This document shows positions 13,769 to 22,233 of a stretch of 24,000 bases of DNA, one piece after another; the first letter of the stretch is position 1; the number at the start of each line of letters is the position of its first letter. Both the position numbers and the translations under genes were made by a program. The notes beneath the pieces were generated by a model that was not told the DNA's origin, did no database searches, and saw only the letters and a program-made list of their open reading frames with translations. The DNA comes from Clostridia bacterium (GTDB lineage Bacteria; Bacillota; Clostridia; Caldicoprobacterales; DTU083): the NCBI GenBank assembly GCA_028696065.1, contig JAQVHT010000007.1, positions 20,105-44,104 of the forward strand, in the 5' to 3' direction.

Positions 13769-14344
13769 CTATTTCAGTTCGCCTCTTAATAAAGAAATTA
13801 AATACCCTACATAGTACACAATATTCTGGCTTTGCCGTATTGCTAAGGATTTTCCTAGTGCCTTTCCCCCTACAGTAAAGGCTGCAATTAGGCTACTTAC
13901 TAGTATTGCAAACATTGTAGGGTTCCATCTAATAGTATTAGAGCTCAGTCTCATTATGAGTATACTACCTGCAGACCCACTTATTATACTGCATATATCA
14001 CCTACTACGTCATTACAAAAACTCGATACCTGATCTGCCTTTCTAATCAATCTAACAGCGTTTATTGCCCCTCGCTTCTTTTTTGAAGCCATTGATAAAA
14101 AGGGAACCTCAGAAGCAGCTGTTACTGCTATACCTATTATATCAAATACAACTCCTATTATTATAATAACAATTAGGGTAACTAGTGATGTTGTAATGCT
14201 AAAGCCTTCCATTAATGAGCTAGAACCCAAGCTTAGAAAGCTTGCAATAAAAAAAGTAAGTATGAAAACCTTAAGAGGCCAGTATTTTCTGTGATTAGCC
14301 TTTTTGTCAGTATTTTTTTGCTTCTTTTTGTCCTGTTTAGTCAA
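13769..14344 (-). CDS. oapA: OLE-associated membrane protein OapA (4-TM)
   Basis: 191 aa from a TTG start with GGAGAG 8 nt upstream. It has a Lys-rich N-terminal tail (MTKQDKKKQKNTDKKANHRKY) and four hydrophobic segments. It sits immediately 3' of the structured RNA and 5' of dxs, which is the position reported for oapA in OLE-containing Firmicutes. No family search was run. Confidence 0.7.
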   Translation of the reverse strand: MTKQDKKKQKNTDKKANHRKYWPLKVFILTFFIASFLSLGSSSLMEGFSITTSLVTLIVIIIIGVVFDIIGIAVTAASEVPFLSMASKKKRGAINAVRLIRKADQVSSFCNDVVGDICSIISGSAGSILIMRLSSNTIRWNPTMFAILVSSLIAAFTVGGKALGKSLAIRQSQNIVYYVGYLISLLRGELK

Positions 14345-14370
14345 ATTGCACTACTCTCCATATAAATATT

Positions 14371-14940
14371 TCCGATGACAATATGCTGAGTAAACTTTGC
14401 GGCTTAGGTCCAGTAGGTTTTCCCGATAAACTGCCCCTCGTCGCCGACGGGGTGGTTTCCCTTTAAAGTCTAACTTACTGTATCGCTAGCAGTAAAACTG
14501 GATCACCACTTAGTCCACACTGTAATCCTCAGCATACTATACCAGTCTAGGAGATTTCCTCAACAGTCATACCAAATTCTATCCTCTTTTGCAGGAAAGG
14601 TTTCAAACAACAATAGCAAACCGATAATGGATCCCTTACCCTTTTGCTCGATTTGTAATCCGCTCTCCCCCACTCAAGGCAGGCTACACTGTACACAGCT
14701 ATTAACCGCAATACAGGTTTAATCCCAAGTAGTAGTAGCTAACCACCTGCTTGGGTCTCCACGGAAGCTGGGTCAACGCCCGCATGCCATTGCGGATCGC
14801 CCTTCTTCCTTAACTCCCAGCACCGACTCCCGACTGGGCGTCAGGGGCCAGCACCAGAAACTTCATCGATATGCCCTTTAACGGATTTTTAGCCCCGTCT
14901 TCAAACTTGGTTGTACTGACTAGAATACTGTAGCATCGGA
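14371..14940 (-). ncRNA. ole: OLE (ornate, large, extremophilic) RNA
   Basis: (1) ~650-nt gap with no track ORF in any frame. (2) G+C is visibly higher than the flanks (by-eye estimate; single 60-nt lines range from 38% to 58%). (3) A terminal helix joins the two ends: 14934-14940 pairs with 14371-14377, and 14925-14931 pairs with 14378-14384. The second pairing includes a G-U wobble that exists only in the minus-strand transcript. (4) There are many internal hairpins, including a GCGA (GNRA) tetraloop stem at 14434-14452, CCCAAG...CUUGGG at 14724-14755, and CCGCA...UGCGG at 14780-14795. (5) The ispA | RNA | oapA | dxs synteny is characteristic of OLE. Confidence 0.8.
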
Positions 14941-14946
14941 GAAACT

Positions 14947-14975
14947 ATTATATCATAAATGAAAATACCTTTCAA
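14947..14975 (-). promoter_or_regulatory. Near-consensus sigma-A promoter directly upstream of the OLE RNA
   Basis: The minus strand reads TTGAAA (14975..14970), a 17-nt spacer, then TATAAT (14952..14947). The predicted TSS falls within a few nt of the 5' strand of the terminal helix at 14940. Confidence 0.6.
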
Positions 14976-14999
14976 TTTGTAGTATTTAGATAATTTTAC

Positions 15000-15893
15000 T
15001 TAGCTGGTTCTATCAACAATCATATGGGCCATCTGCATTAGAAAGCTTGATTTATTACCAAAGCAGTCAATACTTGAAACTGCCTCATCTATAAGGTCTC
15101 TAGCCATTTTCTTTGATGCCTCTAGGCCAAACCTATCAGGATAGGTTTTCTTACCCATAAGGGCATCACTGCCTGGTTCTTTGCCAATATTTGACCTACT
15201 TCCTGTAACATCGAGGATATCGTCTGTAATTTGAAAGGCTAGCCCAATTGATTCTCCGTAAGACAAAATAGCCTGAATCTGACTCTTGTCATCGGTATTA
15301 AGCAAGACTCCAGCATGTAGGGAGGCTTTTATAAGGGCACCTGTTTTGTGCCTATGAATATATTCTAAGCTATCAAATGATATATCCTTATTACTTTCGT
15401 TATTGACATCTACAACCTGACCTCCTACCATACCTGACATGCCTGCTGCCTTAGCAATAACAGTCATTGCCTTTAAATACCTATATCCTTGTTCAGCTTC
15501 AACTGGTAGGTTTTCTAGCATGGTTTCATAGGCTAGGTTTAGTAGGGCATCTCCTGTTAAGATAGCCATAGCCTCTCCAAATTTCTTATGGCTTGTTAGT
15601 TTTCCACGACGATAATCGTCATTGTCCATAGCTGGTAGATCATCATGAATTAAGGAATATGTATGTATCATTTCAACTGCACATGCCATAGCCATTGTGT
15701 GCTCATTAACAGGCCCGAATAAATCATTAGCAGCTAATAAAAGAATTGGTCTTAACCTCTTTCCTCCTGCTAACAGACTGTATCTGATTGACTCTAGTAG
15801 GTCCTTTGGACAATCATTACAGTTACTTGTAAGTGCTTGAAGTTTTGAATCAATTATCTCTTTTTTCCTTTGGTAGTCCGCTTTAAAGCTCAT
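15000..15893 (-). CDS. ispA: Farnesyl/geranylgeranyl diphosphate synthase (polyprenyl synthetase)
   Basis: 297 aa with the first Asp-rich motif LIHDDLPAMDNDDYRRGK and the second FQITDDILD. The ATG directly abuts the xseB stop. Confidence 0.93.
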   Translation of the reverse strand: MSFKADYQRKKEIIDSKLQALTSNCNDCPKDLLESIRYSLLAGGKRLRPILLLAANDLFGPVNEHTMAMACAVEMIHTYSLIHDDLPAMDNDDYRRGKLTSHKKFGEAMAILTGDALLNLAYETMLENLPVEAEQGYRYLKAMTVIAKAAGMSGMVGGQVVDVNNESNKDISFDSLEYIHRHKTGALIKASLHAGVLLNTDDKSQIQAILSYGESIGLAFQITDDILDVTGSRSNIGKEPGSDALMGKKTYPDRFGLEASKKMARDLIDEAVSSIDCFGNKSSFLMQMAHMIVDRTS

Positions 15894-16148
15894 TTATGGT
15901 AGCTCCTTGCTATTTATATCAAAGTCTATTTCTAATAACTTATCATCACTATCCTTGTATAACTGTTTAACAACACCCTGAGCATGAGTAAGTTTTTCAT
16001 TACAAACTTGTGTCAGGCTTATACCCCTTTTAAATAAGTCAAGAGCCTTTTCAAGGGGAATATCTCCTGCTTCTAGGCTAGATACTATTTGCTCTAGCTC
16101 TCTTATGGCCTGCTCAAAGGACAGATCTTCATTTGTCTTTCCACCCAT
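15894..16148 (-). CDS. xseB: Exodeoxyribonuclease VII small subunit
   Basis: From M10 of the track ORF: MGGKTNEDLSFEQAIRELEQIVSSLEAGDIPLEKALDLFKRGISL, a typical XseB sequence. GGTGGTGA is the SD. The 5' end overlaps the xseA 3' end by 20 nt. Confidence 0.9.
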   Translation of the reverse strand: MGGKTNEDLSFEQAIRELEQIVSSLEAGDIPLEKALDLFKRGISLTQVCNEKLTHAQGVVKQLYKDSDDKLLEIDFDINSKELP

Positions 16149-17382
16149 ATTTATCACCACCATCTTGAATTTCAAACTCTTTATTTAATTTTTCTACTAA
16201 TGCTAAAGCACTTCCATCTTTAAAGCATATATTAATTTTTGACTTCTCTTTTAATGTCTCTATACTATGTATGCTTCTTTCCTGGCTCTCGTCCAGGATA
16301 TAGGTATATCCCCTAGCGATAACAGCTAATGGACTAAGTGCTTGAAGGGCTGCAGTTAAATTTCCTAGGATTTCACCCCTATCTTGTAAATAGGCTCGAC
16401 TAGCTGAGTTTAGCCTTTGAAGGCTTAAATCGTACTCCTGGTTCTTTTGATTTATAATAGATTGAGCTGTGCTTTGGGATAAATGACTAGATAGTCCTTG
16501 TAGTAGTTGCATCTTGCTAGAAAATAAATTGGTCATATTGCTTAGTAGGTCTTTTTTTAATCTTAAAGTTTCATCTATTAGCCTACTAGCTTCTGGCACA
16601 GCAAGCTCTGCTGCTGCAGAAGGTGTGGGTGCTCTGACATCAGCTACGAAATCTACGATTGTATAGTCTGTTTCATGTCCTACAGCTGAAATAACAGGGA
16701 GCTTTGACTCGAAGATAGCCCTGGCTAGTTCTTCTTCGTTAAAGGCCCAAAGTTCCTCGATAGAACCTCCACCTCTACCAGTAATAATAAGGTCTATATC
16801 ATCCCTAGTGTTTGCATACCTAATAGCGCTAGCAATTTGCTTGTGGGCTTGTAAGCCTTGTACTTGAACAGGGATAACCAATATATCTACCCTAGCGTTC
16901 CTGCGTTTAATTACATTTATAATGTCACGAACTGCAGCACCTGTATGTGATGTTATAACAGCTATTTTTCTGGGTAACAAGGGTAGGCTTTTCTTGTGTT
17001 CTGGAGCAAACAAACCCTCTTTGTTTAGTTTTGCTTTTAAGGCTTCATAGGTTAGGTAAAGCTCGCCTAGCCCATCTGCTAGCAAGTCTTGTACATAGAG
17101 TTGGTATTGACCATCTCTTAGAAAAACCGAAGTTGAGCCAAGAGCAATTACCTTCATTCCATCCTTTGGCATAAAGTTTAAATTTAAATTGTTTTGCCTA
17201 AAAAAAACGCATTGTACTCTGGCCTTATCATCCTTAAGAGAGAAATACATATGGCCTGATGAATGAAGCTTAAAGTTAGAAATTTCACCCTTGACCTTGA
17301 CCTGCCTTAGTAAGGGGTCTCTTTCAAGCATTAACTTAACATAGTCGTTTAATTGGTAGACAGAAAGAACTATGTCCTTCAT
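16129..17382 (-). CDS. xseA: Exodeoxyribonuclease VII large subunit
   Basis: 417 aa. N-terminal OB fold (VKGEISNFKLHSSGHMYFSLKD), a catalytic core (ITSHTGAAVRDI...GRGGGSIEELWAFN) and a C-terminal coiled coil. ATGA overlap with folD. Confidence 0.94.
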   Translation of the reverse strand: MKDIVLSVYQLNDYVKLMLERDPLLRQVKVKGEISNFKLHSSGHMYFSLKDDKARVQCVFFRQNNLNLNFMPKDGMKVIALGSTSVFLRDGQYQLYVQDLLADGLGELYLTYEALKAKLNKEGLFAPEHKKSLPLLPRKIAVITSHTGAAVRDIINVIKRRNARVDILVIPVQVQGLQAHKQIASAIRYANTRDDIDLIITGRGGGSIEELWAFNEEELARAIFESKLPVISAVGHETDYTIVDFVADVRAPTPSAAAELAVPEASRLIDETLRLKKDLLSNMTNLFSSKMQLLQGLSSHLSQSTAQSIINQKNQEYDLSLQRLNSASRAYLQDRGEILGNLTAALQALSPLAVIARGYTYILDESQERSIHSIETLKEKSKINICFKDGSALALVEKLNKEFEIQDGGDKYGWKDK

Positions 17383-18249: not shown

Positions 18250-19209
18250 TTATACATTACTTGTTTTGTAGATATTTAAACCAATTAAGGCAGTGCCTAA
18301 AGCATTATCCTTAGAAAGCTGTGGATCTGCAAAATATAAAGATAAGCCTTCATTTTTGATTCCAGAGTCAGCCCTTAAGCCCTCTCTTATTATCCTAGAA
18401 GATGATACTCCCCCAACTAAAAGAACATCCCTTGGGTATCCTTTCTTTACCGCATTAATCAGCCATTTTCCAAGAGTTTTAATTAAACTAATATAAACTC
18501 CTCTTGCTATTTTCCTGCTATCTAAGCCCTTGACTATTTGTCTTTGTATATGAGTCTCTGGTCCTGAAAAACTAATATTTAAGTCCTTTACATAGTACTT
18601 AATATCATAGCTTTCTAGTTCATTGTTTGCTAGTTCTTCTAAATGAGGCCCTGATGGAAAGGGAAGTCCTAGGGAAACGCCAATCCTATCTACAAACTGG
18701 CCAGCGTGTAAATCGAGGCTGGAGCCAATCATATCAATGTCAAAGCCATGATTATGGACTCTTACATCTAGTAGTTCAGTTGTACCACCTGATAGATGTA
18801 CAACAAGAAAATGCTTGGCTTTAAAACCACCTAGTCTATACAGGCCAGACATGATATGGTTTTCTTGGTGCGTACTTTCATAATATGGGACATTGTTTAT
18901 GTTTGCTATTACCTGTCCCAAACTTTGTGATAGAACAAATACAGGCATATAGGAATCCTTTTGGGGCCTCGGCTTTACGCTAGAACATACTGCTACTAAT
19001 TCTGGCTTATCAATTGTACTTTTTAGTTCGCTAGTAATTGAGGGTAGATTTTTCAAGTGGTTAAAGATAGCCTTTGATTGTTGTAGGCCTCTTGTCCCAT
19101 CTGCCAGCTCCAAAAGAACCTGCTTATTTAATAAGACCTCACCCTCTAAAGAAACACAAGCCAAAGAACTTGTATAGCAGCTTGTGTCAATACCTAAGAC
19201 ATATTTCAT
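18250..19209 (-). CDS. TsaD/Kae1-like ASKHA-fold protein (peptidase M22 family paralogue), function unknown
   Basis: 319 aa. GIDTSCYTSS (phosphate-1-like), HQENH (aligns with the TsaD HxxxH metal site), VVHLSGGTTELL and LLVGGVSSSRIIREGL motifs follow the TsaD order. ATGA overlap with the nusB stop. Confidence 0.6.
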   Translation of the reverse strand: MKYVLGIDTSCYTSSLACVSLEGEVLLNKQVLLELADGTRGLQQSKAIFNHLKNLPSITSELKSTIDKPELVAVCSSVKPRPQKDSYMPVFVLSQSLGQVIANINNVPYYESTHQENHIMSGLYRLGGFKAKHFLVVHLSGGTTELLDVRVHNHGFDIDMIGSSLDLHAGQFVDRIGVSLGLPFPSGPHLEELANNELESYDIKYYVKDLNISFSGPETHIQRQIVKGLDSRKIARGVYISLIKTLGKWLINAVKKGYPRDVLLVGGVSSSRIIREGLRADSGIKNEGLSLYFADPQLSKDNALGTALIGLNIYKTSNV

Positions 19210-21049: not shown

Positions 21050-21631
21050 TTATTTCCTTGGGAAGATCACTATGTTGTTAGTATCAAACTGAGACTCTCG
21101 TTTTACTATTTCTAGTATCTGTGCTAGCTCTTCAGTAGTTAACTCTTGCTTTTCTACAATTATATTAATATTGTTCTTATGCATAATAGCAATAACCTCA
21201 TTGAAGCCCTTGGCCTTTAATAGGTTCTCTATAACTGTTTCTGTCTCCATATTTGAAGCTAACTCTAGTAATTGGGCATGGGCTTCTTTTTCTATATCTG
21301 CATCTACTTCTTGGTCATTAATAACTGTATTTATATACTCTATCTCTTTGTTTCTGTTTTTTTCTCTTTCAAACCTGTAATCAACAAAGAAATTCGTTCC
21401 CGCTACTTCTTGGGAAGATTTTTCTGTACCAGTATTGCCTTCTGTATCTTTAACCTTTACACTACCCTCTATAGTATTGCTGGTTAATGGATCATCAACA
21501 CCTTTCTTTTTATTGTCAACCTGGTTGGCGTTTTTATTGTATATGAGATTGAGGTAGCCTGTTATTATCAAAAGCATGACTAGCAGGCCTATTATTATAC
21601 TTTTTTTCTTAATCATAAACATAAGATTCAC
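21050..21631 (-). CDS. spoIIIAH: Stage III sporulation protein AH
   Basis: 193 aa. N-terminal TM, an acidic linker, FFVDYRFEREKNRNKEIE and a C-terminal YscJ/FliF-like domain. It is the last gene of the spoIIIA order and overlaps AG by 4 nt. Confidence 0.85.
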   Translation of the reverse strand: MNLMFMIKKKSIIIGLLVMLLIITGYLNLIYNKNANQVDNKKKGVDDPLTSNTIEGSVKVKDTEGNTGTEKSSQEVAGTNFFVDYRFEREKNRNKEIEYINTVINDQEVDADIEKEAHAQLLELASNMETETVIENLLKAKGFNEVIAIMHKNNINIIVEKQELTTEELAQILEIVKRESQFDTNNIVIFPRK

Positions 21632-22233
21632 TCCTTTGTCCTCTTTGTCTCCATGGGAAAAACCTCAACTTGGTTTGCATTAATACCAAGTAGAGTTTGT
21701 ACAGCATTTTGTAACTCTAATCTGACCTTGATATCTTCTGCCCCTTCTGCCACTACTATTACACCTTGGATTTCAGGCTCAATTTCCTTTGTGATTAGGG
21801 CCTGGCTCCCTTGGGATGTTGACATACTAACAGGTTGAGAGTTGATATCGAGTTGCTTTGTTATTCTCTTACCCCCATTGTTGTCAGACTCCTCTGTCTG
21901 AGTGCTTGACTCTGTAGAGTTCATAGCTGGGACAATCTCTTTGCTAGACTTATAAGCGATCATTACTTCAACTGCACCCGCCCCCTTAATAGCTGACAGC
22001 AAGTCCTTTAAACGTTCTTCCTTGTTATAATCTATGCTTTGTTCTTGGCTTAACTTGCTGGGTTCAACATCTTGAACCTTAATACTAGCCTTGTCTTTGT
22101 TGCTAGTAAAAATATTTCCGACCATACTTAATACTATAGCTATGGCCAAAATCAAAATAAAATACTCAATATGCTTTACATTTTTAATCTTTTCATATAT
22201 TGATTTTAAACTAGTTTTCTCCATAATAACCAA
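21628..22233 (-). CDS. spoIIIAG: Stage III sporulation protein AG
   Basis: 201 aa. N-terminal TM and the C-terminal GVIVVAEGAEDIKVRLELQNAVQTLLGINANQVEVFPM, characteristic of SpoIIIAG. Confidence 0.88.
   Translation of the reverse strand: MVIMEKTSLKSIYEKIKNVKHIEYFILILAIAIVLSMVGNIFTSNKDKASIKVQDVEPSKLSQEQSIDYNKEERLKDLLSAIKGAGAVEVMIAYKSSKEIVPAMNSTESSTQTEESDNNGGKRITKQLDINSQPVSMSTSQGSQALITKEIEPEIQGVIVVAEGAEDIKVRLELQNAVQTLLGINANQVEVFPMETKRTKE

Follow-up and report, generated by a model that had tools for sequence, protein, structure and literature searches.

What is encoded in the 655-nt gap (14345-14999) that separates ispA (15000-15893) from the gene at 13769-14344 on a contig of an uncultured Clostridia bacterium? 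The window, by which we mean the whole 24,000-nt stretch of this DNA that was analysed, carries both genes on the minus strand. The original prediction, made from the letters alone, had described a gap of about 650 nt that lacked open reading frames and was richer in G+C than its surroundings, and had proposed that 14371-14940 is a large structured RNA of the OLE family. Its description of the gap was accurate: no open reading frame longer than 54 codons is present in 14345-14999 on either strand, and G+C is 0.46-0.51 in the element against 0.33-0.40 in the flanks.

OLE RNA is a large and abundant RNA bound to the membrane, and to our knowledge the literature has not settled its biochemical activity. 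Recent work showed that the RNA forms dimers, and a membrane-spanning arrangement has been proposed for it. The same literature offers two hypotheses: the P3 stem crosses the bilayer, and the particle controls ion transport that depends on OapA. We conclude, with a probability of about 0.97, that the locus holds a full-length gene for OLE (ornate, large, extremophilic) RNA and, next to it, the partner gene oapA; the host is an uncultured, spore-forming member of the Clostridia.

A full-length OLE RNA on the minus strand

The family was identified by scanning the whole window with the covariance models of Rfam 15. RF01071, the Rfam OLE model, covers 14359-14952 on the minus strand with 506.8 bits (E = 3.7e-146), roughly ten times the gathering score of 50 bits for this family. 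OLE alone among the families scored above the Rfam threshold. The search that the original prediction had put forward, with the Rfam OLE model, is thus significant, and it spans model positions 1-616 of 616 without truncation; the family assignment of 14371-14940 is borne out by this score. In the window, 142 of the 159 base pairs of the model are standard pairs and 17 are flagged as non-standard. We place the RNA itself at 14371-14940 (minus strand), from the 5′ strand to the 3′ strand of P1, and the Rfam match extends 12 nt beyond it on each side.

The element is also predicted to fold stably. The minus-strand fold of 14371-14940 has an energy of -199.4 kcal/mol (z = -3.81) and none of 100 shuffled sequences was as stable. 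The plus-strand fold reaches -155.8 kcal/mol (z = -2.31).

Conservation among OLE RNAs

Relatives were collected by scanning a genome collection with a pattern that combines two stretches invariant in the 3′ domain. The 119 loci that it matched belong to Bacillota, apart from a few doubtfully labelled records. With the window RNA as its single query, nhmmer found full-length homologues in most of the 119 loci, and a MAFFT alignment was made of the window RNA and 107 distinct OLE RNAs (108 sequences). The 107 RNAs are 57% to 75.5% identical to the window RNA (median 64.5%); the nearest among those collected is the OLE RNA of Caldicoprobacter oshimai (75.5%). Three of the loci (L036, L047 and L058) carry a full-length OLE under the labels Deltaproteobacteria, Actinomycetota and Pseudomonas sp., respectively, which lie outside the known Bacillota range. 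These are likely to be mis-binned or mislabelled records.

Near-invariant positions, which make up about 25% of an OLE RNA, are kept in the window. Of the 185 columns with a conservation of at least 95% among the 107 other OLE RNAs, the window RNA agrees with 180. The five deviating positions are C14933, C14846 with A14828, and A14487 with U14482, so that four of the five fall at two base-paired positions. The A14487/U14482 change is a clean exchange of G-C for A-U.

Base pairing is conserved as well. Pairing across the 108 sequences amounts to 84-100% in five helices (P1, P2, P3, P3.1 and the one that encloses the 3′ domain), and these covary far above both shuffled and slid controls. All in all, every family helix tested and nearly all of the conserved bases are kept in the window OLE. 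The original prediction had named three outcomes that would speak against it: lack of a significant match to the OLE model, lack of compensatory changes in the helices among relatives, and homologous regions that encode a protein. None of the three was observed. The match is significant, the alignment with 107 other OLE RNAs holds compensatory changes in the tested helices, and the 107 homologous regions do not code for protein (see below).

Four independent metagenome contigs carry the RNA without a single base change. When 40-nt flanks are included, the sole difference to these contigs is G14359A, which changes the ribosome-binding site of oapA from GGAGAG to AGAGAG.

The terminal helix P1 and the helix enclosing the 3′ domain

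The original prediction had paired the two ends of the element with one another. Indeed, UCCGAUGCUACAGUAU (14940-14925) is complementary to AUAUUGUCAUCGGA (14384-14371), forming 14 bp with a CU bulge. The energy of this duplex is -14.0 kcal/mol on the minus strand versus -10.6 kcal/mol on the plus strand; 3,000 random segment pairs of the same spacing gave a mean of -3.1 and a best value of -12.7 kcal/mol. The pairing therefore exists as written, but only its outer 7 bp, which belong to P1, are backed by the family, and the inner 7 bp show no covariation.

P1 consists of nine pairs between a 5′ strand at 14932-14940 (UCCGAUGCU) and a 3′ strand at 14371-14379 (GUCAUCGGA), both read on the minus strand. 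In the covariation test over 108 sequences, 89.7% of the cells in these nine pairs are paired, and double-sided changes occur in 234 cells versus 95 in shuffles. The covariation score is 0.561, and slid registers reach at most 0.205. A typical P1 in the alignment reads 5′ NNN-GRUGGYG with 3′ YRCCAYC-NNN. The window P1 has one mismatch, C14933-U14378, at a position that is G-C in 101 of the 108 sequences.

The inner 7 bp (14925-14931 with 14378-14384) had 4 double changes where 2.1 were expected, with no covariation and no gain over shuffles. Since the 5′ bases do not vary, shuffling says nothing about these pairs, and our rejection of them consequently rests on a competing helix. This helix encloses the 3′ domain: its 5′ strand (AGUAUGCUGAG, 14528-14538, minus strand) pairs with 14380-14390. 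It is 95.9% paired, with 427 double-sided changes versus 134 in shuffles, and all 11 of its pairs covary. The minimum-free-energy fold of the single window sequence picks the same helix. We therefore rejected the full 14-bp terminal helix as a conserved structure, the 3′ strand of its inner half being taken by this strongly covarying helix. A P1 lengthened by 14931-14380 was likewise dropped; base 14380 already forms the outer end of the helix around the 3′ domain, and the added pair is G-G in 39 sequences. The invariant 5′ AGUAU appears to be a joining segment.

The strand of the RNA had originally been read from a pair in the terminal duplex that is G-U only on the minus strand. The duplex is stronger on that strand, but the pair sits within the unsupported inner 7 bp; the minus-strand orientation is correct on other grounds.

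Could the inner pairing nevertheless matter in this lineage? The inner end of P1 is GCUAC in the window versus the usual GGYGC. This remodelled end might let the 5′ AGUAU pair with the 3′ AUAUU. The resulting 14-bp extension could compete with the AGUAU strand inside the helix that encloses the 3′ domain, and the region where P1, P2 and the 3′ domain meet might then switch between two states in a way peculiar to this lineage. Covariation lends no support to such a switch and the minimum-free-energy fold favours the family structure, and we consider it very unlikely.

In several other loci (L039, L019, L005, L042, L063 and others) 6-7 U come immediately after the 3′ strand of P1 (CACCACCGUUUUUUUAUUU is one example), in the manner of a terminator tail behind a long-range helix. 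No such U run is present 3′ of P1 in the window.

Helices P2, P3, P3.1 and P4

The Rfam consensus leaves model positions 1-53 unpaired and, because of this, P2, P3 and P3.1 can be tested independently of the model. The 5′ strand of P2, UCUAG (14920-14924, minus strand), contains a CUAG palindrome and pairs with CUAGA at 14546-14550. It is paired in 100% of cases, and a U-A to C-G exchange occurs in 17 sequences. A longer P2, in which CAGU[AUU]CUAG would pair with CUAGACUG, was rejected; covariation backs only the 5-bp UCUAG/CUAGA register. Binding sites of OapA have been mapped to palindromes in or near P2 and P4a (PMC12265935), and the CUAG bases at 14920-14924 would be the window's counterpart of the P2 site.

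The 5′ strand of P3 lies at 14915-14918 and pairs with 14564-14567 (4 bp), and that of P3.1 lies at 14904-14911 and pairs with 14571-14578 (8 bp; both minus strand). P3 is 91.0% and P3.1 83.6% paired, and all 12 pairs have double-sided changes. Taken jointly, P2, P3 and P3.1 are 90.2% paired, with 346 double changes versus 115 in shuffles. P3 and P3.1 add up to 12 bp in the window; 12 bp is also the typical sum in the family, whose stem has been proposed to span the membrane (PMC12265935).

P4, taken from the Rfam alignment, is a hairpin at 14880-14899 (minus strand) with the A-rich loop GCUAAAAA (14893-14886). In cryo-EM structures this A-rich loop is a dimer contact (PMC12286853, PMC12265935).

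Hairpins and loops of the remaining domains

Three hairpins had been named in the original prediction (14452-14434, 14755-14724 and 14795-14780). All are real, and each corresponds to a helix of the Rfam consensus.

The first hairpin after P4 in the Rfam alignment is long (14814-14860, minus strand) and has the conserved loop GCCCA (14839-14835). Its C14846-A14828 is the sole C-A among the 108 sequences; elsewhere the position is U-G (97), U-A (5) or C-G (5). We examined C-A as an isosteric stand-in for a functional U-G wobble and rejected it, other sequences having U-A or C-G; it is a plain mismatch. The next hairpin (14763-14809, minus strand) has the conserved loop AAUGGCAU (14791-14784), and its inner stem, 14795-14780 (CCGCAAUGGCAUGCGG), is one of the three originally named. 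A 32-nt hairpin at 14724-14755 (minus strand, -13.5 kcal/mol) is about 12 nt shorter than the Rfam consensus and, judged by its position, is probably P7.

The long arch-like stem at 14582-14680 (minus strand) is probably P9. Its loop holds the palindrome GGAUCC (14634-14629). Among the 108 sequences the core palindrome of the P9 loop is GGCC in 61, AGCU in 9 and GAUC in 3, so the window is of the rarer GAUC type. The self-complementary P9 kissing loop is described as covarying, with a switch between GGCC, GAUC and AGCU (PMC12286853). As far as can be read from the letters, the sequence elements of dimerisation are all present in the window: the A-rich L4, the mutually complementary GCCCA and UGGC loops and a palindromic L9.

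Within the 3′ domain, a P13-type hairpin, UUACUG(C)UA-GCGA-UACAGUAA, occupies 14475-14495 (minus strand), with a GNRA loop at 14486-14483 and a bulged C14489. The main OapB site at P13 requires a GNRA loop and a one-base bulge (PMC7936274), and the window hairpin has both in its sequence. Its loop-closing pair is A-U (A14487, U14482); in 101 of the 108 sequences it is G-C. A P14.1-type hairpin, CCCCGUCG-GCGA-CGAGGGG, follows at 14434-14452 (minus strand), with its loop at 14444-14441 and a bulged G14448; this is the GNRA-capped stem that had been noticed originally. P14.1 is a weak second OapB site in B. halodurans (PMC7936274). A small variable hairpin of the model (positions 424-435) is absent from the window OLE.

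Promoter and transcription

We predict a promoter of the sigma-70 type at 14947-14975 (minus strand), made up of TTGAAA (14975-14970), a 17-nt spacer and the extended -10 element TGaTATAAT (14955-14947). It is the region's best site, matching the hexamers at 11 of 12 positions and carrying the TG in addition. Its -10 element ends 6 nt before the first base of P1, and the predicted start is therefore at about 14940, the first base of P1 itself. The arrangement recurs in the family. Of 108 OLE loci, 90 have a -10 element at a distance of 15-40 nt upstream of the AGUAU anchor, and 71 of these elements include the TG; among 560 control positions, 75 have a -10 element and 9 have one with TG. In B. 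halodurans the proximal promoter raises OLE expression more than 100-fold and the 5′ ends coincide with the start of P1 (PMC3413148).

No terminator-like site was found on the minus strand between the RNA and oapA, and the ribosome-binding site of oapA, GGAGAG (14359-14354), begins 11 nt past P1. With no terminator before oapA, the RNA and oapA are probably co-transcribed. Co-transcription followed by processing is the likely arrangement, and read-through from ispA is a possible second source of OLE transcript.

The partner gene oapA

The gene downstream of the RNA (13769-14344, minus strand) starts 26 nt after P1 with TTG and encodes 191 amino acids, the length that gene callers likewise give. 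Its product has no NCBIfam match. The Pfam CNNM transmembrane domain scores 22 bits against it (E 1.5e-4), below the cut-off of 28.4; a sub-threshold score is consistent with the weak homology of OapA to CNNM proteins (PMC11332333). Hydropathy places hydrophobic stretches within residues 21-45, 43-83, 113-131 and 142-164, and the second of these could hold two spans. The protein also has a basic cluster, SKKKRGAINAVRLIRK, at residues 87-102, and so agrees with OapA as a small membrane protein of several passes.

The distinguishing feature of OapA is a DxxxD motif, which CNNM domains do not have (PMC11332333). Residues 112-116 of the window protein are DVVGD. An OapA-equivalent reading frame lies downstream of OLE in 98 loci, and the two Asp residues of the motif are present in 98 of 98 and 97 of 98 of the encoded proteins. 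On the strength of the DxxxD motif and the weak CNNM match, we identify the predicted product of 13769-14344 as OapA.

Other readings of the element

The absence of a terminator, the closeness of the ribosome-binding site to P1 and the likely co-transcription would all suit a long 5′ leader whose structure regulates oapA and dxs in cis, in the manner of a riboswitch or attenuator, rather than a free-standing RNA. However, the element is a full OLE by the covariance model, and no expression platform overlapping the ribosome-binding site is apparent. Moreover, the OLE RNA of B. halodurans is a single, very stable and abundant RNA species (PMC3413148). We regard control in cis of this kind as highly improbable. 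Nor does the element look like a decaying, non-functional OLE. Decay might leave just such marks as the C-U mismatch in P1, the unique C-A in place of a conserved U-G and the one shortened hairpin, and rare defective OLE genes have been reported in organisms without OapA (PMC11332333). Against it stand the 180 of 185 conserved columns and 142 of 159 standard pairs, an intact oapA with its DxxxD motif, a near-consensus promoter, and an RNA that is identical in four independent metagenome assemblies. That the gene is a remnant is, in our judgement, extremely improbable.

A small protein-coding gene in the gap has practically no chance of being the right explanation. The candidate would be the 54-codon TTG reading frame at 14547-14711 (minus strand). 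Among the 107 homologous regions, the matching span is frame-broken in length in 68 and has an in-frame stop in 101, and conservation tracks base pairing rather than codons. We rejected the coding reading on these frame breaks and in-frame stops.

Comparison with known OLE RNAs

The OLE RNA of Halalkalibacterium (Bacillus) halodurans (RF01071; partners OapA, OapB and OapC) has the same helices and conserved bases as the window RNA and a proximal promoter at the start of P1. The two loci also have in common a downstream oapA and a neighbourhood of isoprenoid, DNA-repair, argR and recN genes. They differ in their hosts, H. halodurans being an alkaliphilic Bacillus and the window host an uncultured anaerobic Clostridia bacterium. 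The P13 loop differs too: it is GUGA in B. halodurans (PMC7936274), whereas it is GCGA in the window, as it is in the window's own P14.1-type hairpin.

With the OLE RNAs of C. acetobutylicum and C. botulinum, which were seen as homodimers by cryo-EM (PMC12286853; PDB 9LCR, cited in PMC12265935), the window has the dimer-contact sequences in common. P3 and P3.1 likewise add up to 12 bp. The window P9 loop, GGAUCC, is of the GAUC type, unlike the common GGCC, and Caldicoprobacter oshimai has the usual GGUGC at the inner end of P1 whereas the window has GCUAC.

Reduced OLE variants 1 and 2, from the gut clades TANB77 and RF39, have P7, P8 and P9 shortened or lost and often lack the OapB site (PMC11332333). 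By contrast, the window RNA keeps P7, P8 and P9 as well as the features of the OapB site, which makes it of the full-length type. GOLLD, ROOL and the raiA motif are likewise large and structured RNAs of unsettled function, some of them homo-oligomeric, but in sequence and fold they are unrelated to OLE.

OLE RNA is already a well-described family, and the window copy is an ordinary full-length member of it. What sets it apart are lineage quirks in its predicted structure: the remodelled inner end of P1, the C-A in place of U-G, the A-U closing pair of P13 and the GAUC loop of the arch. None of these indicates a new kind of system. The locus brings nothing new on the biochemical activity of OLE. 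Its value lies in the correct annotation of an RNA gene for an uncultured Clostridia lineage that is found in many metagenomes, in an additional natural OLE with the rarer GAUC-type P9 palindrome, and in a few unusual pairs that are usable in comparative or structural work.

How the window RNA might act

The functional steps proposed here for the window OLE are carried over from H. halodurans and the two Clostridium species. Transcription from the gene's own strong extended -10 promoter, starting near 14940, would yield an RNA of about 570 nt. Two copies would then join into a dimer, with contacts made by the A-rich loop of P4, by the loops GCCCA and UGGC and by the palindrome in the P9 loop. 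OapA, a distant relative of divalent-cation transporters of the CNNM/CorB type, would bind near the CUAG and AUCGAU palindromes and tether the RNA to the cell membrane. OapB may bind the GNRA hairpin, and other proteins may bind too. By analogy, the resulting particle would support tolerance to alcohols, cold, excess Mg2+ and poor carbon sources. It would most likely do so by adjusting the ion handling that depends on OapA and by sequestering partner proteins or organising them.

Gene neighbourhood and host

On the minus strand the window reads spoIIIAE, spoIIIAF, spoIIIAH, two genes of the Asp23 family, DUF2273, nusB, a TsaD-like gene, folD, xseA, xseB and ispA; then come OLE and oapA, followed by dxs, tlyA, nadK, argR, recN, spoIVB, spo0A and further genes. 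The original prediction had assigned folD-xseA-xseB-ispA, RNA, membrane protein and dxs-tlyA-nadK-argR-recN, and the named genes hold up, with NCBIfam matches that are above cut-off or have very low E values. OLE genes are described in the literature as lying in this gene order (PMC12265935).

Unchanged copies of the ispA and oapA proteins are encoded in hundreds of metagenome contigs. NCBI metagenome-assembled genomes with the identical proteins are labelled Clostridia, Eubacteriales or Clostridiales, and related members of the cluster are labelled Caldicoprobacterales. These labels, together with spoIIIAE, spoIIIAF, spoIIIAH, spoIVB and spo0A in the window, point to a host among the anaerobic or extremophilic Bacillota; its metagenome-assembled genome belongs to the Clostridia, close to Caldicoprobacterales.

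Several other reading frames of the window, all on the minus strand, deserve mention. Between nusB and folD, a frame of 319 amino acids (18250-19209) has a partial TsaD/Kae1 match (PF00814, E 5e-18, residues 98-304) and also weakly matches the Kae1-like subdomain of HypF. Two frames, at 1802-2623 (273 amino acids) and 21628-22233 (201 amino acids), gave no Pfam hit at E ≤1e-3; the latter sits between spoIIIAF and spoIIIAH, the place expected for spoIIIAG. Finally, the xseB frame (15894-16175, 93 amino acids, TTG start) overlaps the end of xseA (16129-17382) by 47 nt, and on identical contigs gene callers chose shorter starts for xseB, giving 84 or 89 amino acids.
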